Below are positions 16,865 through 36,909 of a stretch of DNA of 64,000 nucleotides, piece after piece. The first letter of the stretch is position 1; each line of letters opens with the position of its first letter. The translations under genes and the position numbers were made by a program. This stretch comes from Deltaproteobacteria bacterium (GTDB lineage Bacteria; Myxococcota_A; UBA9042; PHBI01): positions 359 through 64,358 of the forward strand of contig SBGO01000334.1 in assembly GCA_006226565.1 (NCBI GenBank). The letters are read 5' to 3'. The notes beneath the pieces were generated by a model that worked only from the letters and a program-made list of their open reading frames with translations, was not told the DNA's origin and did not search any database.

Positions 16865-16868
<4 letters not shown>
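14778..16868 (-). CDS. recD: exodeoxyribonuclease V alpha subunit, RecD (SF1 helicase)
   Basis: This is the C-terminal 696 codons of track ORF 14778..20255. It contains VVTGGPGTGKTF (Walker A), VVVDEASMLDL, and the C-terminal motif TIHKSQGSQF...YTGVTRA. The ATG at 16868 (MNDTPRLYF) overlaps the recB stop (ATGA). Confidence 0.9.
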
Positions 16869-20904
<4,036 letters not shown>

Positions 20905-20908
<4 letters not shown>

Positions 20909-23900
20909 TTCGTCTCCTCCGCCACGGGGAGCCAGTTGGCGAGCGTCTCGGCCTTGACCTTCGCTGACTCGAGCGGGCTCCAGACCCGGGTCGCCAGGTC
21001 GACCAGGCCGTCGGCGTCGGGCGCAAGTACGTCGTCGAGGTCGTACGTCGGGTCGTAGTTGGCGAACACCATCGCGATCCACCGGTCTTGGCTATCTCCG
21101 TAGACTCCGCGCGCTGGGTCTCCGAGCCACTTCTTCTGGACCGCATCAGCGAGCTTGTTTCGCAGCTCGTCGGCGCTCACCGCCGTGCCTTGCTTCTCCG
21201 CTGCCGCTGCAAACGACGCCAGCTTCTCACCGATGACGGCGGACGTCCCCGAGAAGAGCGGCAGCGGCTTCCGCCGGCCGAGCTGCCAGATGGCGATCAG
21301 GTTCTCCAGAAGCCTCAGCTCCTCGCCCGGCGTCGGCGGTCGAAGGAGCACCTCGTCCGCCTTGCCGCCAGAGGGCTTGCCCACGATGCGCGCGGCGACC
21401 ACCGGCCAGCCCGCAGCACGTGCGGCGAGGAGGGTGACCCACGCCGTGAGTTTCCGCTTCGCGCTCTCCACCCGAGACGCCGTGACCCACTCGAGGACCA
21501 GCTCGTCGCCGAGCTGGCGGATCCGCTCCGGGCGACCACGCAGCGTGAGCCCGGCGATCTGGAGCGAGATGGGCTCGCGCTCGACGGTCTCCCCGCGCCA
21601 GGCGTTGTAAGCGCCGCGAATCTGCCCGGCCTCGTCCGCGAGCTTCGTCGCGAGATGCTGACCGCCGGCTTCCAGCGGGAGGAAGCCGCGCCCGGCGAAC
21701 CGCCGTCCCACGATCTCCGCGGTCGCAGCTTCGTCCCGGCTGGTGAGGAGTCGCACCGCCTCGTCGCGGACCTGCCACTGGTGGAGCGAGGAGAGCTCGA
21801 TCGGCTCGCGGTCATCCAGCTGCGGTGCCCGGTCGGGCAGGAAGATGTCGAGCCGACGATACAAGAAGAGCTTGGCGGGATTCTCGAGGTCCCGCGCGAG
21901 GTCCTCGAGGGTGAGTTCGACCGGTGGGTTCTCCTCGGGCGGCAGCAGCTCTTTCCGGCTCGCGCTGAGCTCGCTCGGAGCGGGCGTCGCTTTGCCGCGC
22001 GCCAGAGCGCGAAGCGTCGTCGCGGCCGTCGCCAGGCTGGGGTCGAAGGTCGTCGTGCCCCCGTTGAAGGCCGCGGGGCTCCACGGCTGGAGCGGGTGTT
22101 TGACCGCGAGGTCGTCGACTTCGGTCCCCGTCAGCCGGCCGACCACGCCGAGCAGCTCCTCGATCGGCACACAGGCCGGCATCTCGGCGCCCTTCTTCTG
22201 GTCGAAGCCGCTCCACAGCACGACGAAGCGCTCGCTCGCGGCCATCAGCGACTCGAAGAGCGCCAGCCGGTCGGCGTCGCGCGGGTCGATCTCGCCGTCG
22301 CGTGGCGCGGCGAACGGGTCCCACGCGCGCGGGCGGGCGGCCCGGGGGAAGGCCGCGTCGTCCATCCCGAGCAGCGCTATCACCTTGTACGGCAGCGTCC
22401 GCCCCGGACGGAGCTCGCTGAGGGTCACCGCGCCCGTGATGACGCGGTCTCCCGACTGCGCCATGGCGAACCGTCCCCGCAAGAGGCGGGTCAGGGCGTC
22501 GAGGCTGACGGGGAGCCGGTCCCCGGCCGCGCCGAGCGCCTCGTCGAGCGCCGCCTCGAGCTGAGGCCGGAGCCACGCCTGGGTCGGCGGCAGCGCGGCG
22601 ACGTCGTCGAGGAGCGCCAGCAGCTCGGCATGCCACATCGGGCCGGTCCGGAGCTGCGCCGGGTCGGTGAAGCGCGCGCGGGCGTTCGTGACGGCGCGAA
22701 CGAGCGCGATGAGCGCCGCGATGCGTCGGCTGCGCTCGCGGCCGTCGACCGCGAGGGGGACGACCGGGGTGCGCGCCCCGTCGAGCCCCTCCTCGACGCC
22801 GTCTTCGGGCATCAGGACGCCGAACGCCAGCCGCTCGAGGCCGAACTCGATCGTGTTCTGCTCGAGCTCGGGCTGGCCGGCGCGCGCGCGATCCGCTGCG
22901 TCGAGCCCCCAGCGGAGGCCGGACTCGATGACCAGGGAGCGCAGGTCGGCCACGTCGTCGAGGTCGAGGCCGAAGCGCTCGCGCACCGGGGACGACTCGA
23001 GGAGTCGCACCAGGCGGGACGCGGTCACGCGCTCGCTGGCGAGCTCGAGCAGCGCGAGCAGGACCTCGGCGAGCGGGTTGGTGCTGGCGATCCCGAGGTC
23101 GGCGATGTGGACCGGGATGGCCGGGGCGCGGGTGGCCCAGTCGCCGTCCGTCTTCGCGGCCGCGCTGCGGTGGGCGAACGTCGCCGCGACGAGCGGGCCG
23201 TAGGTCGCGAGGTCGGGCGTCAGGATGAGCACGTCGCGGGGCTCGAGGTCCCGCTGCGTCGGGTCGGCAAACCAGCTGAGCAGCAGGTCGCGGAGCACCT
23301 CGACCTGCCGCAGTGGCCCGTAGGTCCGGTGGAAGGTGAGGCTCTCGTCCCTCGGCCATCCGGTGTCGCCAAGCGGCGCGTCGGCCCGAACCCAGCGCTG
23401 GAGGCGGGTGAGGAAGGTGCCGTCGGCCGCATCGGACCAGGGCTCGGCCGGGGGCGACGTGGGCAGCAGCCGTCGCACCGCTCGGTCGGCGCGAGCGAAG
23501 CTCCGGGCGATCGGGTTCACGAAGTCGCGGCCGTCGGCCGCTTGTGCGAACGCGGTGCGGTACACCGTGATCGGGACCCACTCGGACAGCGCGTCGAGGA
23601 CCTGCGCCTCGGTCGGGGACAGCGGCGGCAGGCCGAAGATGCGGAGCGGCGGTCCATCGACGGGGCGGCCTTCGCCGGCGAGGACCCGGGCCCGCAGCGA
23701 CGCCGGCGAGTCCGGCGCATCGAGGCCCAGACCGGCGCACAGGCGACGTAGCCAGGCAGGCGCTGAGTCGCGCTCCGTTGCGGGGTCCGAGGCGAAGGCC
23801 AGCGCGTCGTCGTGACGCTCACGCGCGAGGCGGTCGAGGACCGCCGCGATCTCGCCCGCGAGGGAGAGCTCGCGGTGGGTGGTCGCCAGCGGAACGACGC

Positions 23901-24291
23901 CCCCTTTATAGAGGTACGGCTTGACGTCGCCGAAGCCGTCCTCGTCTCGCGAGGCGCGGACGAGTTCGACGAGCCGCGCCCGTAGCCGGCCCACGGCCCA
24001 AGCGTCGTCGTCGCTGGCGCTCGCCCAGCAGTGGCGGCCACTTCCCGCCTGTGGCTTTGCGAGCACCGCGCGCAGCACCGCGTCGAAGGTGGCCCGCCAG
24101 GTGGGGAACTCGACGTTGGCGACGATGTCCAGGCGGGTGGCCAGCTCGTGGCGGAGCCAGCGCTCGACGGCGCGGTTGGCGACCACGATGGGGAGCGGCG
24201 CGAAGGGGTCGGGCCAGTCGGCGGCCAGGTCGTCCGCGAGGGCGGCGACGAGGTCGCGGTGGCTCGGGCTCGTGCGGATGTTGATCGTCAT
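20905..24291 (-). CDS. recC: exodeoxyribonuclease V gamma subunit, RecC
   Basis: ORF 20905..24396. The N-terminus MTINIRTSPSHRDLVAAL..PFAPLPIVVANRAVERWLRHELA follows the RecC N-terminal pattern. The product is about 1128 aa. Gene order recC-recB-recD is a canonical operon. ATG at 24291 is codon 36 of the track ORF. Confidence 0.85.
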
Positions 24292-24468: not shown

Positions 24469-24504
24469 CCGTCCGGCCGAAGCGGCGTCGGACGGCACTT
24501 TTTT
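24469..24504 (+). terminator. GC-rich stem-loop followed by a T6 run (intrinsic-terminator-like or attenuator-like), inside the recC / AAA-operon divergent intergenic region
   Basis: CCGTCCG(24469-75) ...loop GCCGAAGCGGCGT... CGGACGG(24489-95), then CAC, then TTTTTT (24499-24504). A perfect TTGACA lies at 24451-24456 just upstream. The hairpin ends about 90 nt before the AAA-operon ATG. Confidence 0.35.
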
Positions 24505-24558
24505 CACCCTTACTTTCTGCAACTTGCGCCGCCAGGGGCTCAGATCTGAGTCGCCGCG

Positions 24559-24573
24559 CGTAGTAGGGGGGCA
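24559..24573 (+). promoter_or_regulatory. conserved 15-nt motif CGTAGTAGGGGGGCA, copy 1, 22 nt upstream of the tandem-AAA gene start
   Basis: The identical 15-mer recurs at 29847-29861. Both copies are followed by a short spacer, a T-run, a Shine-Dalgarno sequence (GGAGGAGAG / GAGGTGGA) and a start codon. Confidence 0.4.
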
Positions 24574-24595: not shown

Positions 24596-26815
24596 ATGAC
24601 CAAGCGAAACGAAAAGAACGACAAGCTGGCGCCCGCGCCCTACGCCGACGACCTCGCGTACCTCGAGGACGAGCTGCAGTGGATCGAGGCCCGGCTCGTC
24701 GGGCTCGGACATCAGGCGCGGTCAGTGGCTGGCCCGAACGAGCGGCGGTCGCCCTTCGACGAGGATGAGGCCACGCCGACCCAGCACCGCCGGCGCGCGA
24801 CGGCCGCCTTCACGCGGGCGCAGGGCCTGCGCGCGGCCATCGACGCCAACCTCGCTGCGACGCGCGACGCGGACGTCGAGCTCGGCCTCGACAAGCTCTG
24901 TGCCACCCACGGGCTCGACGACTTCGAGCGCAACGTGCTCCTCCTCGCGACCGCCCCCGTCTTCTCGCGGCGGTTCGAGGAGCTCTTCGAGAAGACCGCG
25001 CTGAACCCGGCCCGCTGCGGTCTCGGGGTCGAGGTCGTCTTCGACTTCACCGAGCTCTCCTTTCGGGATCGCATCCTGCGTCGACACGCCTTCGCGCCCG
25101 GGAGCCCGCTCGTGAAGAACGAGCTCATCAGCGTCGGGATGGTGTCGCGCCTCGAGTCCGCCAAGGACCTGCTCGACGCCAGCCTCGAGCTCTCCTCGGG
25201 CGCGCTCGGGACCATCCTCGGGAACGTCGACCTCGACGCCCAGTTCGCCGAGTTCTCGTCCCTCGAGGAGCCCCGCGCGACGTTCGACCAGGTCATCCTC
25301 GCCCCTGAGGACAAGGAGCGCATCCTCGCCGTCGTCGACCGCCGCGAGGACTTCCTCGCCGCCCGCGCGCGCTACGGGTTCGACGACATCATCCAGTACG
25401 GGCGCGGCTCCTTCATGCTCTTCCACGGCGAGCCCGGCACCGGCAAGACGCTGACCGCCCACGCCGTCGCCGCCCGGCTCGGCCGCCGCGTGCTCAACGT
25501 CGACATCCCGATGCTGGCCGACAAGCACGAGTCCCAGCGCATCCTGCCCGCCCTCTTCCGGGCCGCCCGCGTGCGCAACGCCGTGCTCTTCTTCGACGAG
25601 TGCGAGGCCATCTTCGCCTCCCGCCGGTTCGGAAACGACATCATGACCGTGCTGCTCGCCGAGCTCGAGCGCTTCGACGGCTTGGCGATCCTCGCGACCA
25701 ACATGCCCGAAGCGCTCGACGAGGCCCTGGCGCGGCGGATCCTCGTCCGCGTCCACTTCCCCCGGCCGGACATCGAAGCGCGCGAGGCCCTGTGGCGCGC
25801 TCACCTGCCGGCCACCGCGCCGCTCGCCGCGGACGTCGACCTGCGCGCGCTGGCGACCCGCTTCGAGATGACCGGCGGCTTCATCAAGAACGCGGTCCTG
25901 GCGAGCCTGGCCGCCGCCGTCCAGGCCGACGGCGCGGCGCCCGTCATCACCATGCGGCACCTCGAGCGGGCGGCGGCCCAGCAGTCGCGCAGCTCGACCG
26001 GCGAGCGCCCGTCCATCGTGCACCCGCGGGCGCGCCTCGCCGACGTCGTGCTCCCCCCCGACGTCGGGACGCTGCTCGGCGAGATCGTCGACGCGACGCG
26101 CAACCGCGCGACCGTGCTGGACCGCTGGAAGATCGCGCCCCACATGACCTACGGCCGCGGTATCGCCGCGCTCTTCCACGGGCCGCCGGGGACAGGCAAG
26201 ACGCTCAGCGCCGAGGCGATCGCCGGCGAGCTGAACCGACCGCTGCTGGTGGCGTCGGTGCCGTCGCTGCAGTCGATGTGGGTCGGCGAGACGGAGAAGC
26301 GCCTGGTGGCGCTATTCGAGGACGTCCGCGCCGAGCGCGCCGTGCTCTTCCTCGACGAGGCGGACTCGCTCCTGATGGCGCGCGGCGAGGGGCGCGCGTC
26401 GCGCCACGACGACTCGCAGGTCAACGTGCTGCTCGGCCTCATCGAGCGCCACGACGACCTGATCCTGCTCGCCACCAACCGCCCCGGCCTGCTCGACCCG
26501 GCGCTGTCGCGGCGTATCGCCTACCACGTCGCCTTCCCGCAGCCCGACGCCAGGGCGCGGGCCGCCATCTGGCGGGGGCTCGTCCCGGACAGCGTCCCTA
26601 CCGAGGGGGGCATCGACTTCGAGCGCCTCGGGAGCCGCTTCGCCCTGTCCGGCGGGGAGATCAAGAACGCGGTCCTCAAGGCCGCCTTCCGGGCAGCCGC
26701 CCGCCAGGTGCTGCGCCAGGCCGACCTCGAGGGCGCGGCCAGCGAGGAGCAGGCGACGAACAACGGCGACAGCGCACGCCCCATCGGCTTCGCGCGCTCC
26801 GAGGCCGCGGCGTGA
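24596..26815 (+). CDS. tandem-AAA+ ATPase (two classical AAA domains, CDC48/FtsH-like ATPase core) with an about 250-aa N-terminal region
   Basis: ORF 24524..26815. The ATG at 24596 (MTKRNEK) is preceded by GGAGGAGAG. AAA domain 1 has FHGEPGTGKTLTA and LFFDECEAIF. AAA domain 2 has FHGPPGTGKTLSA and LFLDEADSLL. Each domain is followed by an arginine-finger/sensor region. Confidence 0.8.
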   Translation: MTKRNEKNDKLAPAPYADDLAYLEDELQWIEARLVGLGHQARSVAGPNERRSPFDEDEATPTQHRRRATAAFTRAQGLRAAIDANLAATRDADVELGLDKLCATHGLDDFERNVLLLATAPVFSRRFEELFEKTALNPARCGLGVEVVFDFTELSFRDRILRRHAFAPGSPLVKNELISVGMVSRLESAKDLLDASLELSSGALGTILGNVDLDAQFAEFSSLEEPRATFDQVILAPEDKERILAVVDRREDFLAARARYGFDDIIQYGRGSFMLFHGEPGTGKTLTAHAVAARLGRRVLNVDIPMLADKHESQRILPALFRAARVRNAVLFFDECEAIFASRRFGNDIMTVLLAELERFDGLAILATNMPEALDEALARRILVRVHFPRPDIEAREALWRAHLPATAPLAADVDLRALATRFEMTGGFIKNAVLASLAAAVQADGAAPVITMRHLERAAAQQSRSSTGERPSIVHPRARLADVVLPPDVGTLLGEIVDATRNRATVLDRWKIAPHMTYGRGIAALFHGPPGTGKTLSAEAIAGELNRPLLVASVPSLQSMWVGETEKRLVALFEDVRAERAVLFLDEADSLLMARGEGRASRHDDSQVNVLLGLIERHDDLILLATNRPGLLDPALSRRIAYHVAFPQPDARARAAIWRGLVPDSVPTEGGIDFERLGSRFALSGGEIKNAVLKAAFRAAARQVLRQADLEGAASEEQATNNGDSARPIGFARSEAAA

Positions 26816-27438
26816 CCGTTGGCCTCTCCCAGCCGCCCCCCGCTCCCGTGCGGGGGCAGCCGGCGTCGCCCCCCATCGACGCTCCCGCGGCGCCGGTCGC
26901 GGGGCTGAGCTTCTGGGTGGTGTGGGGCGGCCACTATCTGCTGGCAGACGTCCACGCGGTTCGGCGGGTCAGCGGACGCAGCTTCGTGGTGGCCCGCGGC
27001 GGGAACCTCCAGCGCCATCTGAACGTGGAGTGGGCGCGCTGGCTCGCGGGGCTCTTCCAGATTGGCCCCGTGTTCCTCCACGGCCGCCCCATGCGGCCGC
27101 CACGACTTCCCCTCGAGCCCGGAGACCTCGCGATGCCCGACGCGCCCCTGTCCATCGACCTTCGAGCGCGCGACCAGCGGTTCCTGCGCGCTGCCCGCGA
27201 CGTCCTGAAGCGCTACGAGATAGCCGGCGGCGAGGCGCTCGGCAGCACTGTCGCCTTCGACGTGCGCGGCGGAAGCGCCGACTACGCGGTCCGGGTCTCC
27301 GCCGATTGGTCCGAGCCGCCGCGCTGCACCTGCCCGGACGCGGCGCGCGCGGCGAACGCTGGATTCTGCAAGCACATCATCGCCGTCCTGCTCGTCGAGG
27401 AGGACCTCGGCTACCAGCTGCTCGACGTGCTGCTCTGA
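26812..27438 (+). CDS. SWIM zinc-finger domain protein
   Basis: This is the C-terminal 208 codons of track ORF 25600..27438. CTCPDAARAANAGFCKHIIAVLL matches the CxC...CxH SWIM signature. The proposed GTG start at 26812 overlaps the upstream stop (GTGA); the true start is uncertain. Confidence 0.55.
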   Translation: MTVGLSQPPPAPVRGQPASPPIDAPAAPVAGLSFWVVWGGHYLLADVHAVRRVSGRSFVVARGGNLQRHLNVEWARWLAGLFQIGPVFLHGRPMRPPRLPLEPGDLAMPDAPLSIDLRARDQRFLRAARDVLKRYEIAGGEALGSTVAFDVRGGSADYAVRVSADWSEPPRCTCPDAARAANAGFCKHIIAVLLVEEDLGYQLLDVLL

Positions 27439-27453
27439 ACGAGGAGGCCCCCG

Positions 27454-28539
27454 ATGTCCCGCAACCCGACCGCCCTCGCGCTCCCCACGACCGACGGCTA
27501 CAGCTACGGCGAGGTGCGTGCGCTGGTCGAGCTGACCCTGCGAGCCGGCATCTCGGTCCTGTTGCGCGGCCACCCGGGCGTCGGCAAGTCCGCGCTGGCG
27601 CACGAGCTGGCTTCCGCGATGGGGCTGCCCCTCGAGGACATTCGGCTGGCGCAGCGCGACCCGGCCGAGCTCGCCGGCGTCTACTTCCCGGACCGCGAGC
27701 GGCAAGTGCTGGCGCTCTTCGCGCCGGACTGGGTGCAGCGGGCGTGCGAGGTGCCCACGTTGGTGTTCCTCGACGAGATCAACGCGGCCGTGACCCGTCT
27801 CCACCAAGCCGCCGCCTATCAGATCGTGCTCGAGCACCGGGTCGGGCCCTTCCGGTTCCATCCGGGCACGGTCGTGCTCGCTGCGGGGAACCTCGAGGAG
27901 GACCACGCCCTCGCCGCGACGCTGTCGGCGGCACTGACCAATCGCTTCGCCCACTACACGCTGCGAGTCGACGCGGCGAGCTGGCTCACATGGGGGGCTG
28001 ACGCGGGCGTCGACGAGGCGATCCTGGCGTACATCGGACGCTACGGGGAGGAGGCGCTCTATTCGAACGATGGGGAGTACGCGTTCCCGTCGCCGCGGAG
28101 CTGGGAGATGGCGAGCCGGGTGTACCGGGCCGCGACCGAGGCGGAGCGGCGCCGGGCCGTGGCGGCGTGCGTGGGAGCGGCGGCGGCGGAGAAGCTGTTC
28201 GCGTACCTGCGGATCTATCAGCGGGTGAACGCCGCGCGCATCGTCCGCAAGGGGCAGGCGATGGACTTCGCGAGGGGCAAGTCGGCCGAGCCGTCGTTCA
28301 TCTACGCGGCGCTGTTCTCGGTGGCCGCGTGGCTCAACCACGAGGGGACGCCGACGGACGACGAGCTCCCGAACGTGGTCGCGTTCCTGCGATCGCCGGG
28401 GCTCGACCCCGAGTACGTCTTCCTGTTTCTGCGGCAGGTGAAGGGGAACGCGGCGTTGATGGCGCGGCTCAAGGGGTTGCCCGAGTTCCGAGCCCTGGCT
28501 GGCGAGCTGGTCCGACTGTCGGCGGAGCTCTACCGATGA
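27454..28539 (+). CDS. MoxR-like AAA+ ATPase (AAA_5 family)
   Basis: ORF 27454..28539 contains LLRGHPGVGKSALAHELA (Walker A) and LVFLDEINAA (Walker B, DEIN type). GAGGAGG lies 6 nt upstream of the ATG. Confidence 0.8.
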   Translation: MSRNPTALALPTTDGYSYGEVRALVELTLRAGISVLLRGHPGVGKSALAHELASAMGLPLEDIRLAQRDPAELAGVYFPDRERQVLALFAPDWVQRACEVPTLVFLDEINAAVTRLHQAAAYQIVLEHRVGPFRFHPGTVVLAAGNLEEDHALAATLSAALTNRFAHYTLRVDAASWLTWGADAGVDEAILAYIGRYGEEALYSNDGEYAFPSPRSWEMASRVYRAATEAERRRAVAACVGAAAAEKLFAYLRIYQRVNAARIVRKGQAMDFARGKSAEPSFIYAALFSVAAWLNHEGTPTDDELPNVVAFLRSPGLDPEYVFLFLRQVKGNAALMARLKGLPEFRALAGELVRLSAELYR

Positions 28540-29876
28540 CCGCCGAGGAGACCGCACGGATCGTTCGCGCGGAGGAGCGACGGGTGATGGCGTTGCGAAT
28601 GCAGCTGCTCGAGCTGCACCCGTTCTGGGGCCACCTGCTGCTGCAGGTACGTGTCGTGGCGGCGCTCGAGCTCGTGGCATTTGCCGCAACCGATTGTGTG
28701 CGGCACATCTGGTACAATCCGCTGCGCACCCGGCACTTGACCCTGCGGCAGCTCGGGTTCGTCCTGGCGCACGAGGTGGGGCACCAGGTGTTCGCCAGCC
28801 GGGAGCGCCAGCGGGGGCGCCAGGCGCACCTCTGGAACTGCGCGACGGACTACGCCATCAACCGGGTGGTGGCGCGCATCGGCCACCCTGCGCGACACGA
28901 GGCGCTCTACGAGTCACCGGACGGGCACTATCCCGGGCTCGGCGACGTCCGGATCCTGCTGGACGCGAGGTGGGACGGGAGAATCGCCGAGGCGATCTAC
29001 GAGGAGCTCGCCGCGGAGGCGTTGCCCGAGCCGGTGAGCGTGACGTTGACGCTGACCATGCCCGGGGAGGAGGGAGAGGGAGCCGGCGCGATGGTCCGCG
29101 TGCCGAACCTGAGCGACCATGGGGGCGGGATCGACGTGCACCTCCCGGACACGTTGACGGCGGCAGATCGAGGGGTGCTCGCCGAGCGACTGGCGGGCGC
29201 CGTCGACGCCTGGCAGCGAGCCGGTCGCGCCGGAGACGCGCCGGGCGCTCTCGTCCGCGAGCTCGAGCTCGGTCGGCGAGGACAGGTCCCGTGGCCGCGG
29301 CTCCTGCGGAGGTTCGTGAGCCAGGCGACGGCGCGGGACGACTACACGCTGCGCCGACCGAACCGGCGCTACCTGATGGAGGACCTGGTCGTGCCCGGCC
29401 TCTGCGGCGAGCGGGTCGGGACGGTCATCGTGGCGGTCGACACGTCCGGGAGCATGACGCCGAAGCAGCTCGATGTGGTGGCAGCCGAACTCGAGGCACT
29501 CACCAGCGTCGTCGACGACCTGACGCTGCTCGTCGGGGACACCGAGGTGCGCGAGGTCGTGACTGGCGAGGCCGTCGCGCCCTGGTTGCGCGCGGCCCGC
29601 ATGGTTGGTGGCGGTGGCACGGACCATCGCCCGTTCTTCGCCTGGGTCGCCGAGCGACGCCTGCATCCGGACGTGTTCATCGGGCTGACCGACCTCGCCT
29701 CGCGTTTCCCCGAGCGTCCGCCGCCCTACCCGGTCCTGTGGGTCACGCCCGAGGGCCACGGCCCGGCGCCGTGGGGGCAGATCGTGGTCGTGAGCTCGCG
29801 CAGCCGAACAAATGGCCCCCAAGGGGCTCAGAACCATCTGCTCACCCGTAGTAGGGGGGCAGACAAGACCCTTTGA
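28536..29876 (+). CDS. vWA-domain protein with an N-terminal HExxH (DUF2201-like putative metallopeptidase) domain; cognate partner of the MoxR ATPase
   Basis: This is the C-terminal 446 codons of ORF 28167..29876. The ATG at 28536 overlaps the MoxR stop (ATGA). It contains VLAHEVGHQVF (HExxH) and a vWA MIDAS (VAVDTSGSM ... GGGTD). Confidence 0.8.
   Translation: MTAEETARIVRAEERRVMALRMQLLELHPFWGHLLLQVRVVAALELVAFAATDCVRHIWYNPLRTRHLTLRQLGFVLAHEVGHQVFASRERQRGRQAHLWNCATDYAINRVVARIGHPARHEALYESPDGHYPGLGDVRILLDARWDGRIAEAIYEELAAEALPEPVSVTLTLTMPGEEGEGAGAMVRVPNLSDHGGGIDVHLPDTLTAADRGVLAERLAGAVDAWQRAGRAGDAPGALVRELELGRRGQVPWPRLLRRFVSQATARDDYTLRRPNRRYLMEDLVVPGLCGERVGTVIVAVDTSGSMTPKQLDVVAAELEALTSVVDDLTLLVGDTEVREVVTGEAVAPWLRAARMVGGGGTDHRPFFAWVAERRLHPDVFIGLTDLASRFPERPPPYPVLWVTPEGHGPAPWGQIVVVSSRSRTNGPQGAQNHLLTRSRGADKTL
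29847..29861 (+). promoter_or_regulatory. conserved 15-nt motif CGTAGTAGGGGGGCA, copy 2, inside the last codons of the vWA gene and 28 nt upstream of the next start
   Basis: Identical to the motif at 24559-24573, in the same arrangement relative to a downstream SD and start codon. Confidence 0.4.
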
Positions 29877-29889
29877 TGAGGTGGATACC

Positions 29890-30255
29890 GTGACAACTGA
29901 CACGAAGAAGTCGAACTACTTCCTGCCCGACCGCAGCAACCGGCCGAGCAGCAGCCCGGCCGATGGCACGCGAGAGCTCGGCACCGGGCATCACGGCGTT
30001 CTCGCCGATGGCCGCCCCTACGTCGGCGAGGCGGCGGCGGTGGATGGGTTCACCATGGCCTACTATTACTTCGATGCCACTGGACTCGAGGACGCTTCGG
30101 TCGAGGAGCTCACCGACCTCCTGTGCCGGTCCGGGATCGACGTCGGCTCTCACGACCCGGAGACGGGGGTCTACCTGGGGGCTTCCCGGGGGGAGGACGC
30201 GGTGGGCCGCCCGATCATCGAGTTCCAGGTGACCTACGACCTGACGGACTGGTAG
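29890..30255 (+). CDS. small hypothetical protein (121 aa)
   Basis: ORF 29812..30255. GTG at 29890 (VTTDTKKSNYF) is preceded by GAGGTGGA with a 4-nt spacer. It is the last gene of the AAA operon. Confidence 0.45.
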   Translation: MTTDTKKSNYFLPDRSNRPSSSPADGTRELGTGHHGVLADGRPYVGEAAAVDGFTMAYYYFDATGLEDASVEELTDLLCRSGIDVGSHDPETGVYLGASRGEDAVGRPIIEFQVTYDLTDW

Positions 30256-30380: not shown

Positions 30381-30610
30381 ATGCCCGCCTTCGCCCCGAC
30401 GTTCACGCTCACGCCGCTACTGCTGCGGCAGCTCAAGGTCATCGACCAGATCGACGGCTTCCTGGCGGCGGTGGAGACGCAGGCCGAGTAGGTCGAGCAG
30501 CTGGGCCACGAGGCTCGCGTGCACGACGCGCTCACGAGCTTGCGCATCGAGGGGAGCACGCTGAGCTACGAGGCGGCCCTCGAGCTGGCCGAGGGGAAGC
30601 TCACGGGGGC
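30381..30610 (+). pseudogene. decayed 5' fragment of a second fic copy (Fic N-terminal about 75 codons; premature stop and frameshift)
   Basis: Positions 30371-30610 are about 85% identical at nucleotide level to 3071-3310, from the SD GGAGGTCCGATGCC through MPAF(A/S)PTFTLTPL(L/M)LRQLKVIDQ...AAVETQAE. The copy hits TAG at 30489-30491, where the intact gene has TGG. The homology then continues in another frame (LRIEGSTLSYE) before ending. Confidence 0.6.
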
Positions 30611-30749: not shown

Positions 30750-32762
30750 TCACCCTGGCGCTGGTCCTCGCAGGTGCGGTTCCTCGCATTGGTCGAGGTG
30801 GGGGGTGCAGCCGAGGAGGCAGTGCTCGGAGGCGGGGTCGCGGGGATCGTCGCCTTCGCGGAAGCAGCCGGCGGCGCAGTCGAGGAAGCAGCGCTCGCCG
30901 GCGGGTAGCTCGGCCGCTTCGCCCAGCGCCCCCACGAGGGCGCCGGAGTAGCCGTGGCTCGCGTCGGCCTGGCCCTCGTAGCGCCAGAGCCCGACGAGCG
31001 CGTCGCCGTGGCGGGCCACACGCACGACCATGTCGACCGTGTATCTGTTCGGCGAGAAGAGCTGGCTCCGGCCGGTGAAAGTCCGCTCCTTGCTCGCCCG
31101 GACGATGGTGATAGCCCCCTTCATACGGCCGGGACGCGGGGCGAGATCCCCGGGCTCGGTGTAGCCGGACTTCATCAGCCGCCCTTCGAGACTTCCCGAA
31201 TCGCTCCCGACATGAAGGCTCAGAGTGTAGTGCCCGCGTGTCCCGACAGCGTTGGGGCGCTCATTCTCCGCGTGCACCACCTCGGTGTCGACACGCCAGC
31301 GCCCTACGAGCGTCGCCGCTGGTGACTCGACGGAGGATGCCGACTTCGCGCCGTCTGTCGGGCTCTTCGCTGCCTCGACTCGCACCGGGGCGCCGGCACT
31401 CCCTGTCTCACGTCCCTTGGCCGAACGGACGACGGCCGCCGCCTCGCGCGGGGCCAACAGCGCCCCCCGCTTGGGGGCGCTCGATTGCACCGCGGCGGGG
31501 GCGGACCTAGTCGGAGGCGCCGTCGAGCCGACACCAGCGTTGCGGGCTGAAGCAGGCTTCGGTGCGACGGTGCTCGTCGGTCTGTTAGGCGCAGTCGAAG
31601 GCGGTGCGACAGCGGCCGGTGCGACCTTGCCGGGAGGTTCCGCTCCCATGGTTCGAGCACCGTTCGCCAACACCGGCTGCTCGCGTGAAGCGCCGCCATG
31701 AGAGTTGAACGCGACGATGGCCGCGGCGGCGCCTCCCGCGAGGACGAGCGCCAAGAGCAAGGGCCACAACGTGTGACGATGCCGACGCGGGGCCCTCGAC
31801 AGGCTCCCGCCCGCATCTCGGGAGCGCGAGGACGTCGCGCGACGTCGAACGCCGACCGACTGCTCGTCCGGACCGGCAATCAGGGCCGGGGCGTCGTAGC
31901 GGGTGATGTCCGTCGGGCGGCGCTCGCTCTCCAACCACGCGAAATCGACCGCGTCGTGGCGCTCTTTGAGATCGACGTAGACGTTGTGCGGCTTCAGCCC
32001 ATCGAAGGTGAGGCGGGCGTCGCCTTCATTTCCGATTCCGTTGAACAGGCAAATCTGCGCTCTGTTGTCGTCCAATCTCCACTGCAAGAACGCGTCGAGA
32101 TCCAACGCGTACCGCGACTCGGGCGACACGACGTAGAACCGGTCCTTCTGGAGCACGCCACGCCAGCGGCGCTCGGCGTACATCGGGTGGTCGGTGGCCG
32201 CTCCGCGATACGACCTGACCTCGCCGCGAAAGTTGTCCCCAGGGCGCGCGTCGTAGTTCATGACGCAAACCAGCTCGAGGTTTCTGAGCCAAGTCAGGGA
32301 CTCCAAGAGCGAGATCGTCGCCGCGTGGAGCCCCGTCACCAGGGCGCCGCGTTCGACGTCGCGCAGCGCTCCCCCGGCGTGCGAGCTGCGGTTGCGCAGC
32401 TTCCTGTAACGCTGGAGTGAGCCTCGCGCGTGCTCGGGCCAGGCGATGAGCTCATCGCCCAGCCCCGGCGCGATTCGCCCATTCCGGAGGGCCTTCGAGA
32501 GGTCCCGAACGACGTAGAGCCAATCCCCCAGCGTCCAGCCGTAGCGCTGCGAGCTCGAGAGCCGCGACGGAAGCTCGTGCCCCTCCGCGAGCAGCGTTGC
32601 GGCCTGCATCGACGCCACGAATCGCAGCGCTACCTCGATCACCGCGACCAGCGGATCATTGTCCAGCTCCTTCACGTTCGTCGCGTTCTTCCACGCGTTC
32701 GCGATCGGGAAGGGGAGCTCTTCGTAGAACCACGCGGGTCCGTTTTCCGGTGGCGCGCTCAT
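30750..32762 (-). CDS. hypothetical single-pass membrane protein (about 330-aa cytoplasmic N-domain, one TM helix, Pro/Ala-rich linker, C-terminal extracytoplasmic domain)
   Basis: ORF 30750..32762 starts with ATG. The TM segment is LWPLLLALVLAGGAAAAIVAF. No catalytic motif was recognised. Confidence 0.5.
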   Translation of the reverse strand: MSAPPENGPAWFYEELPFPIANAWKNATNVKELDNDPLVAVIEVALRFVASMQAATLLAEGHELPSRLSSSQRYGWTLGDWLYVVRDLSKALRNGRIAPGLGDELIAWPEHARGSLQRYRKLRNRSSHAGGALRDVERGALVTGLHAATISLLESLTWLRNLELVCVMNYDARPGDNFRGEVRSYRGAATDHPMYAERRWRGVLQKDRFYVVSPESRYALDLDAFLQWRLDDNRAQICLFNGIGNEGDARLTFDGLKPHNVYVDLKERHDAVDFAWLESERRPTDITRYDAPALIAGPDEQSVGVRRRATSSRSRDAGGSLSRAPRRHRHTLWPLLLALVLAGGAAAAIVAFNSHGGASREQPVLANGARTMGAEPPGKVAPAAVAPPSTAPNRPTSTVAPKPASARNAGVGSTAPPTRSAPAAVQSSAPKRGALLAPREAAAVVRSAKGRETGSAGAPVRVEAAKSPTDGAKSASSVESPAATLVGRWRVDTEVVHAENERPNAVGTRGHYTLSLHVGSDSGSLEGRLMKSGYTEPGDLAPRPGRMKGAITIVRASKERTFTGRSQLFSPNRYTVDMVVRVARHGDALVGLWRYEGQADASHGYSGALVGALGEAAELPAGERCFLDCAAGCFREGDDPRDPASEHCLLGCTPHLDQCEEPHLRGPAPG

Positions 32763-32811: not shown

Positions 32812-34668
32812 TCACTGCCCGGTCACAGCGACGGCGAAAGTGTGCAGCCCCTCGGCGAGCTGGGCGAGCGGTGCGTCGGTCCCTGGCGCCCATACGTCAG
32901 CGAGGAAACGTTGTATCGCGGTCCTGCTCAGGACGAGCTCCAGCGAGGTGAGGCGCGCATGGAGGTGCACGACATGGCGCTCGGGAGGGGCCATCGCCAT
33001 CGTCACGTAGGTCGCGAGCGCGCAGCCGACACGCAAGGCGGAGTGGACGTCGTCGGAGAGAGCCTCACTGCCGTTGGCAGCCGCGTCACGGCGGGCGCCC
33101 TCTGCGGGCTCGGGGGACGAGGACGCACCGAGAGCGAAGACGAAGTCGCTCGTGCATCCGAATGCTGCGGCGTATGGAGCTCCGCTGTGCAGTGCGAACG
33201 CGGGATCGGCGTCGAGGGGGACCCGCTTGGGCGCGGGCTCGAACGCCATCAAGGCCTCCCGAAAGGTCTTGGGGTGCGACCCGCCATGAGCGAGTAGCTC
33301 CTCCGCCACCTCGTAGATCGTCTGCCGCCAGGGGAACAGGATCGGCACGAGGAGAGGGACGAGGCTCGCGTCGCCGGGTGGTGCTGGACCCACGTCTCGA
33401 AGTGCGAGGGGCACCGCGGCCAACAGCTCCCCGTTCCGCGTCACCTCCAACCGAATCGGTACATCATCCGCACCACCGCCGAGGCGCTCACCCCACGCCC
33501 GCAGGTCCTCCTGCAACCCATGGTAGAGGAGCGAGAGGCGGCGAACGAGCCCACGCGCCAGGCCGGCCGGTCCCCCCTGAACGAGGCACCTGACAGCCAT
33601 CGGCAGCACGAGGAGATCCGGAAAACGCATCACGGCCTCCTCGACGACGCTCGGCGGGAGCCGTCGCACGATGCCGTGTCGGAGCAGCGGCTCCGCGCTC
33701 AGCTGCAGCGCGAGCGCCGCTACGTCAGGGTCGGCGGCGTGCTCGAGAAGCTGCACGGTCGTGGTGCCCGCATCGACCGTGGACAGCGCGAACGCCGCCC
33801 CCGCGATCGCGCGGCACACACCGCCCTGCTCGAAACGCGACGCGAACCACGTCCGGAAGGTGCGGGAACCGCGGTGAGAGGGTTCCAGCGCGGCCAACGC
33901 GCCGGTCACGACCTGGCCGCCGATCGTTCCCTTGGCCACGCGCTTCGCGACCGCATCGAAGCAACGATGCACGAGAGGCAAGTGAGCATCCCGCGGCCAT
34001 GGCCTCCGCTCCAGGAGGTCCAGGGCGAGGAACATCACGAGAGTCCAATCGGTCGACGTCCCATCCTCCGAGACGCGAGCCAGGACCGAGCTGACGACCC
34101 GTTCTGGGCTCGCGTGCCCCTCGAACACGCTGACGACGATCGGACGCCACTCGTAGGCTCTCCAAAGTTGGCGCAGAATCTCAGCCTCATCAGTGCCCGC
34201 GCGACGCGCCGCGCGGAGCGTTCCAACACCGGCAAGCGCCGCGTGGAGGGTCGGGGTCGAGAACGCGAGGTTCCCATCCTTGGTGGGCTGGAGGAGCGCC
34301 GGAGCCTCACTCGCGACGCCCAGAATCGACGCAGCGTCGAGGTGGTCCGCGCCGGGTGTGGCGCCCAACACCGCACCGAGTGCCTCGCCCACCAGATCCG
34401 GTGCGATAGCCGGGTATGCAACTTCGCCGGAGAGCCTGACATCCTTCCCACGGCGTCCCTTCCGCAGCTTGCGCATCCTGGCGGCCAGGTCTTGCAGGAT
34501 GCCCAAGGCCATCGCGGGCTCCGGCCACTCCGGGTGACGCTCGTGGCGACGCGCCAGCGCGACATCCAGCCATAGCCGCGTTCGCCTTGCACCAACGTCG
34601 CCGGCCCTGCTCGTGCCAATCGCACCGAGGAGCGCAGCCAATCCCTCGTCGATTGGGCTCGATGTCAT
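32812..34668 (-). CDS. hypothetical protein (618 aa)
   Basis: ORF 32812..34716. ATG at 34668 (MTSSPIDEGL, codon 17) is preceded by GGAGA with a 7-nt spacer. It is divergent from the sigma54 activator gene. No motif was recognised. Confidence 0.5.
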   Translation of the reverse strand: MTSSPIDEGLAALLGAIGTSRAGDVGARRTRLWLDVALARRHERHPEWPEPAMALGILQDLAARMRKLRKGRRGKDVRLSGEVAYPAIAPDLVGEALGAVLGATPGADHLDAASILGVASEAPALLQPTKDGNLAFSTPTLHAALAGVGTLRAARRAGTDEAEILRQLWRAYEWRPIVVSVFEGHASPERVVSSVLARVSEDGTSTDWTLVMFLALDLLERRPWPRDAHLPLVHRCFDAVAKRVAKGTIGGQVVTGALAALEPSHRGSRTFRTWFASRFEQGGVCRAIAGAAFALSTVDAGTTTVQLLEHAADPDVAALALQLSAEPLLRHGIVRRLPPSVVEEAVMRFPDLLVLPMAVRCLVQGGPAGLARGLVRRLSLLYHGLQEDLRAWGERLGGGADDVPIRLEVTRNGELLAAVPLALRDVGPAPPGDASLVPLLVPILFPWRQTIYEVAEELLAHGGSHPKTFREALMAFEPAPKRVPLDADPAFALHSGAPYAAAFGCTSDFVFALGASSSPEPAEGARRDAAANGSEALSDDVHSALRVGCALATYVTMAMAPPERHVVHLHARLTSLELVLSRTAIQRFLADVWAPGTDAPLAQLAEGLHTFAVAVTGQ

Positions 34669-34782
34669 CGCGGAATCTCCATGCTCGTCATTCCCCCACC
34701 GACGCTGTGCGCCCACGAAAACGCAGTCACGGTGGACCAGCGAGGTCGCATTGACAAGGCGGGTAGGCGACGCGAGATGCTT

Positions 34783-34806: not shown

Positions 34807-36465
34807 ATGGACACCACGATCGCGAGCACCCAGCGTTCACCCGTACTCCTGACGTGGCTGGCGACACGCAACGACCCCTACGAGCGAGACAAGTCCGGGG
34901 GCGCGTTCAAGGAGCCGCGCGTCTGGGGACCGACCTTGACGCTCATGGCCGACCCGGAATCTCCATACAAAGGGCGCATCGACGACGTCGTCGTCTTCCG
35001 CCAGGCCGGACCCAAGGCGGCGGACCACACGCGCGTCTACGAGGAGCTCGTCGCGGCCCTCGAGGAGCACGAGATGGCGCCGCGCCTCCACCCGGTCCTC
35101 TGGGACCACGACGACCCGACCGACCACGCCGCGATCTACGACTTCCTCCGGACGGAGGTCCCTCGCATCCGCCGTCAGTTTCGAGACCGCGAGCTGGTCA
35201 TTCACCTCTCGCCCGGCACGGCGTCCATGCACACAGTCTGGGTGCTGATGTGCGAGACCGGCTTCATTTCCCAGCCGTTCACCGCCGTGCAGTCCCTACG
35301 CCCCGGTGAACGTCGCGGCCGCGCGCCGGTCAACGCGCTCCGGCTCGGCGTCGACACCTTTTTCAAGCGCTGGCAGGAGACCAAGCCCGCCGCCGCGAGA
35401 CTCGATGACCACCAATCCCTCTGGGATCCGTCGCAGTTCCGCTCGACCAAGATGCGCGCCCTCTACGACGAAGCCCGGCGCGCCGCCCGCCTCAAGATCC
35501 CCGTCCTCATCCTCGGCGAGCGCGGGACCGGCAAGACCACCCTCGCCTCCTGGATCCGCCTCAAGAGCCCGTTCCGCAAGTCCGCGCTCGACTCGGCCTG
35601 GCCCGCCGTCCCCTGCGGGCAGTACACGAACGAGACGATGCGAGCCGAGCTCTTCGGCTACAGAAAAGGCGCCTTCACGGGCGCCACGACGCACAAGGCG
35701 GGGCTCCTCGCCGAGGCGAGCGGCGACACCCTCTTCCTCGACGAGATCGGCGACGTCTCGAAGGACCTCCAGCGCCTCCTCATCAAGGTCCTCGAGGATG
35801 GCACCTTCCAGCCTGTCGGCAGCACCAAGGTAGAGCGGACCGACGTCCGACTTCTCACCGCCACCAACCTCCCCGACAACGAGCTCCGCGGGCGCCTCGA
35901 CGCCGACTTCCTCGACCGCATCAGCGCCTTCACCCTCACCGTCCCGCCGCTGCGAGAGATCCCCGACGAGCTCGAGTGGCTCTGGCCGAACGTCCTCGAC
36001 GAGGCCGCGCGCCGCGCCGCCGCGCCGACCCGGTATGCCCAGCTCCCGAAGCGCCACCACGCCCGCTTTGTCTCGGCGCTCCAACGGCACCCGCTCCCGG
36101 GCAACATTCGCGACCTCTTTCGCGTCGCTTGGCGCTTCCTCGCCGCCCGCGCCGACGACGACGCCCCGCTCAACGTCGAAGACGCCGTCGACTACGCGCT
36201 CGCCGCGATCGACCGTGATGCGGCGCCGGATGGCTCGTCGCGCACCATCGCCCGCGCCTTCGCCGACATGGAGCCCCTCCCTCCATCCCTCGTCGCCGAA
36301 ACGCCCCTCGACCCCAACCGCGTCATCGACGACTTCAAAGCCTGGTTCGCCGCCGAGGCCCGCGCGCTCGGGCAGCGAACCGGCCAACCGCTGGGTGACC
36401 TCGTGACCGTGACGGACCGGACGCTGAGGAACTGGCGGAAGGATGATTCCGAGGCGCCGGAATAG
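34807..36465 (+). CDS. RtcR-like sigma54-dependent transcriptional activator (bacterial enhancer-binding protein): CARF-like N-terminal sensor domain plus AAA+ sigma54-interaction domain
   Basis: ORF 34681..36465; ATG at 34807 (MDTTIASTQRSPVLLTWLATR). The AAA+ core has VLILGERGTGKT (Walker A), AELFGYRKGAFTGA (the GAFTGA sigma54-contact motif) and LFLDEIGD (Walker B). The N-terminal block ELVIHLSPGTASMHTVWVLMCETGFISQPFTAVQ closely matches the RtcR CARF segment (from memory YLVHITTGTHVAQICLFLLTESRHFPARLVQ). No clear C-terminal HTH was seen. Confidence 0.75.
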   Translation: MDTTIASTQRSPVLLTWLATRNDPYERDKSGGAFKEPRVWGPTLTLMADPESPYKGRIDDVVVFRQAGPKAADHTRVYEELVAALEEHEMAPRLHPVLWDHDDPTDHAAIYDFLRTEVPRIRRQFRDRELVIHLSPGTASMHTVWVLMCETGFISQPFTAVQSLRPGERRGRAPVNALRLGVDTFFKRWQETKPAAARLDDHQSLWDPSQFRSTKMRALYDEARRAARLKIPVLILGERGTGKTTLASWIRLKSPFRKSALDSAWPAVPCGQYTNETMRAELFGYRKGAFTGATTHKAGLLAEASGDTLFLDEIGDVSKDLQRLLIKVLEDGTFQPVGSTKVERTDVRLLTATNLPDNELRGRLDADFLDRISAFTLTVPPLREIPDELEWLWPNVLDEAARRAAAPTRYAQLPKRHHARFVSALQRHPLPGNIRDLFRVAWRFLAARADDDAPLNVEDAVDYALAAIDRDAAPDGSSRTIARAFADMEPLPPSLVAETPLDPNRVIDDFKAWFAAEARALGQRTGQPLGDLVTVTDRTLRNWRKDDSEAPE

Positions 36466-36528
36466 CTTTTCCGAGACGCCGCCTCGCAGCGAACCAACCT
36501 CGCAGGCCCGGCCAGCATTCCCGTTAGG

Positions 36529-36544
36529 TTGTAACACCTTACAA
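36529..36544 (+). promoter_or_regulatory. AT-rich inverted repeat TTGTAA-CACC-TTACAA immediately upstream of the sigma54 promoter (candidate activator or IHF-type site)
   Basis: Read directly. It stands out as an AT-rich palindrome in a 70%-GC background, 15 nt upstream of the -24 element. Confidence 0.35.
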
Positions 36545-36558
36545 AGAGCGACCAGACT

Positions 36559-36574
36559 TGGCCCACGGCTTGCG
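36559..36574 (+). promoter_or_regulatory. sigma54 (RpoN) -24/-12 promoter: TGGCCC-ACGGC-TTGCG
   Basis: It matches TGGCAC-N5-TTGCW with correct GG-to-GC spacing (11 nt). The predicted TSS is about 36586, 27 nt before the first ATG of the downstream operon (36613) and directly downstream of the sigma54 activator gene. Confidence 0.6.
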
Positions 36575-36612
36575 TAGGTCCTCGGTGTCCCCGCCACCAC
36601 CGAGGCCACCGC

Positions 36613-36909
36613 ATGCAAGCGACGCTCAGCCTGACGCATCACGCCGCGTACCGCGCCCGCACGCGCAGCATCCCCGCCGAGGCGCTCGACGCGGCCATGA
36701 CGTTCGGGCGCCACCGCGCGGTCCGCAACGCCGACATCTACACCCTCGGCTGGCGTGAGGTCCGGGCGCTCGCCGCCCGCGGCATCGACGTCGCCCGCTG
36801 GGAGGGCGTCGAGGTCGTCTGCTCGCACGACGGCGACGTCCTCACGACCTACCGCAACACCAACGCTCGCGCGCTCCGCCGGCCCTACGGCGTCCGCCGC
36901 GCGGCGTGA
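36613..36909 (+). CDS. small DUF4258-like protein, first gene of the sigma54 operon
   Basis: ORF 36613..36909 (98 aa). LTHHAAYRARTRSIPAEALDAAMTFG resembles the DUF4258 H-A-x-x-R-x-x-x-R-x-I core. This assignment is tentative. Confidence 0.4.
   Translation: MQATLSLTHHAAYRARTRSIPAEALDAAMTFGRHRAVRNADIYTLGWREVRALAARGIDVARWEGVEVVCSHDGDVLTTYRNTNARALRRPYGVRRAA

Follow-up and report, generated by a model that had tools for sequence, protein, structure and literature searches.

What is a run of five genes for that sets a double-AAA ATPase, a SWIM zinc-finger protein, a MoxR-like ATPase and a peptidase-like von Willebrand factor A (vWA) protein beside recBCD? The run occupies positions 24596-30255 of a 64-kb stretch of contig SBGO01000334.1 (assembly GCA_006226565.1, Deltaproteobacteria bacterium, G+C content ~71 %), which was analysed as a whole and is called the window here. 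A sigma-54-type activator gene and the affiliation of the nearest homologues suggest an origin from Myxococcota or a relative. An earlier reading of the letters alone (the sequence-only reading) had taken the run for a five-gene AAA+ operon and a possible conflict system. We find that the locus is a composite, consisting of a three-gene core of SWIM, AAA_5 ATPase and DUF2201 genes (the triad) and a facultative gene for a protein with a WHD and two AAA domains, with the fifth gene as a bystander. The triad cassette is real and conserved, and represents an uncharacterised variation on AAA+/vWA remodelling with several unusual features. A role in conflicts is probable for the module, and a connection to DNA-end processing possible.

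Gene content and junctions of the locus

The plot of G+C by codon position, which includes G+C at third positions (GC3), displays five successive coding stretches on the plus strand between 24596 and 30255. The identical five products, of 739, 208, 361, 446 and 121 amino acids (aa), are given by a public gene call made independently for this contig. The genes, designated g1 to g5, encode a protein with a WHD domain (PF22977) and tandem classic-clade, Cdc48-like AAA domains (g1, 24596-26815), a SWIM zinc-finger protein (g2, 26812-27438), an AAA_5-type ATPase that is both MoxR-like and midasin-like (g3, 27454-28539), a protein joining a zincin-like HExxH domain (DUF2201_N) to a vWA domain (DUF2201) with a metal ion-dependent adhesion site (MIDAS) (g4, 28536-29876), and a small protein known from the independent gene call (g5, 29890-30255). 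Searches with Pfam hidden Markov models upheld the domains that had been assigned to g1-g4 from the letters. The junctions also proved to be as described: the g1 stop and g2 start overlap in GTGA at 26812-26815, g2 and g3 do not overlap and are separated by a 15-nt spacer, which contains the ribosome-binding site GAGGAGG, and g3 and g4 are coupled by an ATGA overlap at 28536-28539. Between the g4 stop and the g5 start there are 13 nt; the start of g5 had been placed at ATG 29812 and was moved to GTG 29890.

The recBCD genes were correctly recognised as neighbours. Pfam identified recD (14778-16868), recB (16865-20896) and recC (20905-24291) on the minus strand, directly upstream of g1 and divergent from it. 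The restriction enzyme that was thought to lie beside the cluster is not there. The two genes directly downstream had no match in Pfam, PADLOC, NCBIfam or PHROGs, and the nearest restriction-type gene, encoding an Eco57I-like methylase/endonuclease of 1561 aa (5465-10150, minus strand), is ~14 kb away, beyond recBCD.

A conserved triad of SWIM, ATPase and DUF2201 genes

To define the unit, 25 homologues of g4 were aligned and one genome per GTDB species was scanned, which resulted in 63 triad loci (numbered with L), whose open reading frames (ORFs) were annotated with the window proteins. The loci span Myxococcota, Bradymonadia, Lentisphaerota/Victivallales, Planctomycetota, metagenome-assembled genomes of Riflebacteria type and others, and their G+C content ranges from 0.40 to 0.74. 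The SWIM gene is located directly before the ATPase gene, in the order SWIM-ATPase-DUF2201, in 54 of the 55 loci with enough upstream sequence. The median gap is 9 nt from SWIM to ATPase and -1 nt from ATPase to DUF2201, the latter calculated from all 63 loci. Because this order is nearly invariant across the loci, we consider the triad to be the conserved unit; the five-gene operon as such is not conserved. Ubiquitous core genes with a known metabolic chaperone role had been named as the outcome that would speak against a conflict system; the genes found here are not of that kind, and their distribution is accessory and patchy. No paper dealing with the SWIM-ATPase-DUF2201 cassette was found in a literature search.

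The N-terminal HExxH metallopeptidase-like domain noticed on the vWA protein was recovered by Pfam, in which g4 reads from N to C terminus as PF13203 DUF2201_N (84.3 bits, cut-off 23.2) and PF09967 DUF2201 (80.7 bits, cut-off 26.4). The HExxH residues H79, E80 and H83 and the MIDAS residues D302, S304, S306, T362 and D386 are invariant in the 25 homologues, and judged from its sequence the peptidase is active-looking. The AlphaFold2 (AF2) model of g4 has a predicted local distance difference test score (pLDDT) of 78, with a C-terminal tail (residues 422-446) below 50; these last ~25 residues are not conserved and form a disordered tail. In Foldseek, the C-terminal domain of the model was matched to the vWA folds of Ro60, vWF-A and NorD, by which the predicted vWA fold is confirmed. 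The N-terminal helical domain had no convincing solved relative in Foldseek, the best being the minigluzincin selecase (E 0.58), and searching PDB with the g4 sequence and profile brought nothing useful.

The ATPase g3 passes the Pfam cut-offs for AAA and AAA_5 (28.1 bits for AAA_5, cut-off 22) and stays below those for AAA_3 (PF07726, 22.8 bits, cut-off 27) and bpMoxR (18 bits, cut-off 27). The best matches of its profile in PDB are the AAA_5 modules of Midasin/Rea1 (E 1.6e-17), and no MoxR, RavA, NorQ or CbbQ chain was found there at E<1e-3. As the Pfam thresholds for MoxR proper are not reached, "MoxR-like" is a loose but serviceable label for this protein. Walker A (G39-S46), Walker B (D107-E108), sensor-1 N146 and the arginine finger R164 are invariant across homologues, and among PHROGs the protein matched phrog_1297 "ATPase" (E 2e-63).

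The SWIM domain of g2 scores 24.1 bits in Pfam (cut-off 19.6). An alignment of 67 homologous ORFs shows that the C-terminal module of ~110 aa, with CxC-x13-CxH at its end, is universal. The N-terminal domain of ~80 aa is present in the long, high-GC forms of Myxococcota type and absent from forms of 105-128 aa, which are found in other phyla. The AF2 model of g2 was built with 3 homologues, reached a pLDDT of 43 and is unusable. We observed a second, long-form SWIM paralogue after the DUF2201 gene in three loci (L010, 7289-8059; L011, 3749-4375; L012, 9452-10372), in which the upstream SWIM gene is short. In L011 this paralogue stands directly before the double-AAA gene, and in the window g2 comes after g1. 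What connects the SWIM protein to g1 may be the N-terminal domain of its long form.

The double-AAA protein as a facultative partner

In Pfam, g1 consists of a WHD domain (PF22977, residues 6-221, E 2e-34), described there as "variant winged-helix", and two AAA domains (E 5e-54). Its top matches among PDB sequences are the D2 domains of Cdc48/p97. Walker A and Walker B of both AAA domains, the arginine fingers and the aromatic pore loop of D2 (W562-V563-G564) are invariant in 25 homologues. The family is large, with more than 1,200 matches at E<1e-20 and both WHD and AAA domains in all among the matches listed. The protein scores below the cut-offs of the CDC48 model TIGR01243 (158.6 bits, cut-off 802.65) and of the IteA equivalog NF042959 (180.6 bits, cut-off 510).

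The link of such a double-AAA protein to the SWIM, ATPase and vWA genes, which was first seen in the window, is real and recurrent. A g1 homologue lies beside the triad in 21 of the 63 loci, all but one of them high in G+C, and does so in four arrangements. It is directly downstream on the same strand in 12 loci (gaps mostly ~10-200 nt, two larger), directly upstream as in the window in 2 (L062 and L015), convergent in 5 loci and divergent in 2; the metagenomic L085 also has it directly upstream. The triad is visible in only 13 of 80 metagenomic g1 loci. Two g1 orthologues with 66 % and 53 % identity adjoin recC and have no triad, the divergent recC/g1 arrangement without a triad is seen in L004-L007 and L071, and the g1 of Bradymonas sediminis has neither the triad nor recBCD beside it. 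As its position varies and most homologues have no triad nearby, g1 is a separable, facultative partner; the recurrence of the association in different orientations argues that the link is functional. An extracellular contractile injection system (Afp15-like) was considered as a context for g1 and rejected, as no sheath or tube genes were present in any g1 locus examined.

Recurrent neighbours

The flanking ORFs of 143 loci (63 triad and 80 g1 loci) were clustered all against all and scanned for domains. One recurrent neighbour of the triad is a wHTH-WYL-WCX regulator, found in 21-22 of the 63 loci and mostly transcribed divergently from the SWIM gene. The WYL-WCX repressor CapW senses, and is released by, single-stranded DNA (ssDNA) generated by RecBCD (PMC11662680). 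Seven metagenomic loci have a WYL-type regulator directly adjoining the double-AAA gene with no triad in view, divergently in five and co-directionally in two (L074, L075, L093, L101, L102, L107 and L129), so the regulator also associates with g1 independently.

RecBCD or AddAB-type genes are located within 10 kb of the triad in 9 of the 63 loci and in the window, where the AddAB type means a UvrD helicase with a PD-(D/E)XK nuclease and a PD-(D/E)XK partner. One locus (L064, 0.47 G+C) is a single co-directional array of SWIM-ATPase-DUF2201-g1-recC-recB-recD with a gap of 19 nt between g1 and recC. The same co-directional order is found in L083, and in L028 the triad continues straight into recCBD on the same strand. 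On its own, g1 adjoins recC in L004-L007, L071 and L092 and lies within ~2.5 kb of recBCD in L101 and L133.

A Fic gene neighbours the triad in 6-8 loci. A Fic remnant was also recovered in the window by tblastn with the Fic proteins of L017, L033 and L048 (30348-30596, plus strand); it retains the N-terminal ~80 codons, with a stop (30489-30491) breaking the frame, and is truncated. Its intact relatives match Pfam Fic, and there is an intact paralogue in the window at 3081-3992. An ADP-ribosylglycohydrolase gene is a neighbour in 4 triad loci, and GmrSD, AbiEi, DUF1016 and integrases occur sporadically. Apart from the WYL, Fic, RecBCD/AddAB and sporadic genes, the clustering of flanks yielded no further conserved neighbour and no client enzyme.

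The fifth gene and a bipartite motif

The product of g5 belongs to a real small family with 51 representative homologues, 19 of them with E<1e-10. It has no match in Pfam, PADLOC, NCBIfam or PHROGs, and those of its relatives that are fusions carry no informative domains. As no g5 homologue occurs in any of the 63 triad loci, we rejected g5 as a component of the cassette.

The regions before g1 and g5 share an exactly repeated bipartite motif of 40 nt, AGGGGCTCAGA-N14-CGTAGTAGGGGGGCA, on the plus strand. The first copy (24534-24573) ends 23 nt before the g1 start and the second (29822-29861) is inside the 3′ end of g4, where it encodes the tail of residues 422-446, with its end 29 nt before the start of g5. 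The pattern AGGGGCTCAGA-N14-CGTAGTAGGGGGGCA has 2 matches in the window and 0 in 100 shuffles, and the motif is likewise found upstream of the g1 orthologue in the metagenomic loci L004, L005 and L071. It could be a promoter- or operator-like element, maybe shared by g1 and g5. The second copy suggests that g5 has its own start signal and is regulated together with g1, and the term five-gene operon is overstated for this reason. A sigma-54 promoter was rejected, the consensus not fitting by eye. No Rfam family matched the motif, so a known RNA was rejected too. The spacer between recC and g1 also contains a G+C-rich hairpin, CCGTCCG...CGGACGG, followed by TTTTTT (24469-24504, plus strand). It has the look of a terminator or attenuator, with no plus-strand gene upstream of it. 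A LexA box considered in this spacer was dropped, since the match is partial and is not conserved in the alignment.

Comparison with known systems

The sequence-only reading had compared the locus to the yehLMPQ cluster of Escherichia coli. The resemblance holds for the types of domains, as the MoxR-like ATPase YehL, the VWA protein YehP and the SWIM protein YehQ are clustered and likewise uncharacterised, but not at the level of sequence: phmmer searches of YehL, YehP and YehQ against g3, g4 and g2 returned no match at E<0.01. Moreover, the gene order is different, YehQ has 614 aa compared to 208 aa of g2, YehP has no peptidase domain annotated and there is no double-AAA partner. The E. coli cluster contains the additional genes yehM and yehI (DUF4132), and the window cluster has no YehM-like gene.

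Also comparable are the MoxR/vWA pairs NorQ-NorD, CbbQ-CbbO and RavA-ViaA, and Midasin. As in these, a small AAA+ gene is coupled to a vWA gene with a complete MIDAS; the nearest solved relative of g3 is the AAA_5 ring of Midasin, and the g4 vWA domain has NorD as one of its matches in fold. By the adjacent and coupled vWA-MIDAS gene, g3/g4 is an AAA+/vWA dyad in the broad sense, not a MoxR system sensu stricto. It departs from the known pairs in the N-terminal HExxH peptidase on the vWA protein, in the SWIM gene as an obligatory third member, in the scores of g3 below the AAA_3 and bpMoxR cut-offs and in the lack of a linked client enzyme gene. The vWA-MoxR-VMAP systems (Kaur, Burroughs, Iyer, Aravind 2020) similarly combine an NTPase, a vWA protein, which is sometimes fused to a peptidase, and a third partner, and are enriched in multicellular or social bacteria. 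The cassette has SWIM as its third gene and no VMAP, and its bpMoxR score is below cut-off; in Kaur et al. 2020, SWIM has 0 occurrences and metallopeptidase effectors are described as rare.

Phages and plasmids carry dyads of AAA_5 and DUF2201 genes that are homologous to both g3 and g4 (phmmer E 1e-22 to 1e-38). The g4 protein matches 268 phage records, with 24-29 % identity among the matches listed. The dyad is found in N4-like Schitoviridae, beside helicase and DNA polymerase genes, in Thermus phage phiFa and in conjugative Burkholderiales plasmids, near genes of the type IV secretion system (T4SS), and g4 also matches Bacillus phage G. The ATPase and DUF2201 genes either keep the order that they have in the triad or are adjacent. 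Unlike the triad, these dyads lack a SWIM partner and are borne by mobile elements, where they are found in replication or early regions or close to T4SS genes. The SWIM-linked DUF2201 subfamily is practically absent from IMG/VR, with one weak match. Such a pair was described in jumbo phages by Iyer et al. 2021, who proposed a chaperone/processing role (PMC7824862). We noticed that phage DUF2201 homologues (e.g. NC_055784.1 and NC_023581.1; phrog_1314) are labelled "HNH endonuclease" by RefSeq and PHROGs and "metallopeptidase" or "hypothetical" in the GenBank versions. The HNH label seems to be a mis-annotation that was propagated.

The pairing of an unfoldase with a protease, and AAA domains of g1 closest to Cdc48/p97 D2, recall Cdc48/p97-Wss1/SPRTN and IetAS. 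However, g1 has a WHD N-domain in place of the double-psi-barrel of Cdc48 and does not reach the CDC48 cut-off, no IetS subtilase is present in the window locus, with g1 below the IteA cut-off, and the peptidase of g4 is DUF2201_N and not SprT/WLM. The likeness to both systems is a functional analogy only.

The locus within a defence island

The 64-kb window is a defence island rich in conflict genes, which agrees with the conflict-type setting proposed at the outset. At its left end (2-2742, minus strand) are an ORF of 494 aa, with a weak match to an SMC head only, and a calcineurin-like metallophosphatase gene, together SbcCD-like by our reading. A protein of 669 aa (12060-14069, plus strand) matched only a short HNH-like segment (IscB model) and, weakly, DpdF. 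Downstream of the locus, two large genes on the minus strand (30750-32762, 670 aa, and 32812-34716, 634 aa) have the codon-position G+C of coding sequence, with a GC3 below that of their surroundings, and gave no match in Pfam, PADLOC, PHROGs or NCBIfam. Both may be novel cargo of the island, and the Fic gene left as a remnant suggests that they were inserted here.

The genes from 34807 to 44405 on the plus strand are a candidate second conflict system. They begin with an RtcR-like regulator with CARF and sigma-54 AAA domains (34807-36465) and an ORF of 98 aa. Three genes with overlapping ends follow, for a vWA protein (36906-37655), a PP2C protein (37648-38346) and a kinase (38343-39683), and we take this trio (36906-39683) to resemble a TerY-P-type triad. 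After it there are an MkoA-like SF1 helicase gene (39680-42961) and a gene of 477 aa without assignment. Further along are a PDC-M26A-like AAA_5 protein with a partner of 669 aa (44434-48968, plus strand), a PLD-ResIII-DUF3427 helicase (49198-52197, plus strand) and a giant HIT-PLD-ResIII-helicase-S24 peptidase protein (52178-56545, minus strand).

Possible function of the cassette

Our favoured reading, to which we would give a little less than an even chance, is that the cassette is an inducible conflict/stress module, directed against phages or mobile elements, that remodels proteins by AAA+-driven proteolysis. NorQD, CbbQO and Midasin are the families that serve as the analogy for a mechanism of an AAA_5 ring and a vWA domain. 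From the arrangement, the conserved motifs and the neighbours we infer how the complex may form, what its substrates may be, when it would be induced and what phenotype it would confer. A ring of the g3 ATPase would bind the vWA domain of g4, by analogy with NorQ-NorD, CbbQ-CbbO and Rea1/Midasin. The MIDAS site of g4 would grip an acidic residue of the target protein, ATP hydrolysis would pull on or remodel the target, and the tethered HExxH metallopeptidase would then cut it. The SWIM subunit may recognise the target or a nucleic acid, and the Cdc48-like g1, where present, could thread or unfold the target or its fragments through the D2 pore. Expression in the relatives would be controlled by the divergent wHTH-WYL-WCX repressor, and since repressors of this type are released by ssDNA, DNA damage or infection probably switches on their module. 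The targets may be DNA-associated proteins, in functional proximity to RecBCD/AddAB. In favour of a conflict role are the patchy distribution, neighbours such as Fic, ADP-ribosylglycohydrolase, GmrSD, AbiEi, DUF1016 and integrases, the defence island around the locus, and the homologous ATPase-DUF2201 pairs of phages and conjugative plasmids.

Several observations weigh against this reading. The cassette encodes no classical toxic effector other than the peptidase. No model of PADLOC-DB v2 covers the triad and g2-g4 have no specific match in it (none for g4, a weak partial PDC-S62 for g2 with E 6.5e-5, generic TRIP13/IetA AAA matches for g3), no defence model of NCBIfam is matched by g2-g4, and g1 matches the IetA/TRIP13 models through its AAA domains only, under the NCBIfam cut-off. 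As phages carry homologues, the dyad is not intrinsically a host-defence device. The g2 structure model is unusable, so that a specific role of SWIM has no support. The window copy of the cassette has no WYL regulator, and many genes flanking the triad at other loci are housekeeping genes. Finally, the links to g1, WYL, RecBCD/AddAB and Fic are found almost only in high-G+C Myxococcota-like loci, and these partners were not seen in the low-G+C loci of Lentisphaerota/Planctomycetota type, with the exception of L064. Because they are restricted to a single broad lineage, inherited synteny could explain part of the association.

The same neighbours could be accounted for by a DNA-repair accessory in which the module and the Cdc48-like unfoldase clear away proteins that obstruct DNA ends or are covalently trapped on DNA, so that RecBCD/AddAB can load, as a bacterial counterpart of the eukaryotic p97/Cdc48-Wss1/SPRTN axis. 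We consider this unlikely, yet it draws on much of the neighbourhood data: RecBCD/AddAB-type genes at nine triad loci and in the window, in loci from 0.47 to 0.73 G+C; the co-directional arrays of triad, g1 and recCBD (L064, L083) or of triad and recCBD (L028); the presence beside the triad of two end-resection machines that are analogous and not orthologous; the recBCD genes next to or near g1 alone (L004-L007, L071, L092, L101, L133); the response of WYL regulators to ssDNA; and the helicase and DNA polymerase genes beside the phage homologues. The link is, however, limited to one broad lineage and absent from the loci of Lentisphaerota, Planctomycetota and Riflebacteria, and the peptidase domain of g4 has no specific similarity to the SprT/Wss1 fold (best selecase, E 0.58). 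RecBCD is itself a hub of phage-host conflict, and adjacency to it therefore cannot discriminate repair from immunity. The link to DNA-end processing through RecBCD/AddAB and WYL is supported by the neighbourhood data at least as well as the conflict reading is, and we regard the latter, as put forward from the sequence, as plausible.

It is also doubtful that the locus is just two independent units that happen to abut, with g1 belonging to recBCD or standing solo, the triad separate from it and the GTGA overlap a local accident. The triad accompanies g1 in only 13 of the 80 metagenomic loci, the two orthologues by recC and the g1 of Bradymonas lack it, no g1 is visible in the available sequence of 42 of the 63 triad loci, and g1 is missing from L008, whose g4 homologue (61 % identity) is the nearest with flanking sequence. 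Many contigs are short, though, so that these absences are under-determined, and repeated re-association in varied orientations would hardly be expected if linkage were not selected for: g1 accompanies the triad in 21 of 63 loci and in four arrangements, 12 of these loci having it co-directionally downstream with short gaps, and the gene order of the window is common to at least three loci (L062, L085, L015). Very improbable, in our view, is a classical MoxR-type chaperone for the maturation of a housekeeping (metallo)enzyme, like NorQD, CbbQO or CoxDE, with the HExxH domain as a processing peptidase. The pairing of AAA+ with vWA-MIDAS and the translational coupling are hallmarks of such systems, the vWA domain of g4 matches NorD in fold among others, and a chaperone/processing role was proposed for the phage version by Iyer et al. 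(PMC7824862). But the neighbour clustering of the 63 and 80 loci found no conserved candidate client enzyme beside the triad, the distribution is patchy and cross-phylum, and the genes that recur beside it encode a WYL regulator, an unfoldase, Fic and helicase-nucleases, with no metabolic enzyme among them.

A more specific proposal, which we think rather unlikely, joins g1 and the cassette into one machine that is coupled to RecBCD/AddAB, induced through ssDNA and WYL, and that extracts and cleaves proteins blocking or inhibiting DNA-end processing. Its targets would be covalent DNA-protein adducts, end-binding proteins or phage-encoded inhibitors of RecBCD. If true, the p97-SPRTN/Wss1 pathway would have an analogue in prokaryotes, or RecBCD a "guard".

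Implications

Pairs of MoxR-like ATPases and vWA proteins are among the commonest uncharacterised AAA+ systems of prokaryotes, and few have known clients. A built-in, active-looking metalloprotease and an obligatory SWIM subunit would widen their repertoire from remodel-and-mature to remodel-and-cut, and one lineage adds to this a recurrent Cdc48-like unfoldase and a type of regulator that senses ssDNA. The ATPase-protease pairs of phages and plasmids suggest that a common tool is used on both sides of host-element conflicts. To our knowledge, no dedicated protease pathway for clearing obstacles from DNA ends, or for sensing interference with end processing, has been defined in bacteria. The linkage to RecBCD/AddAB leads to the concrete hypothesis that the cassette may do one of the two, and together with the WYL regulators this linkage is the most interesting, if so far suggestive, lead from the locus.

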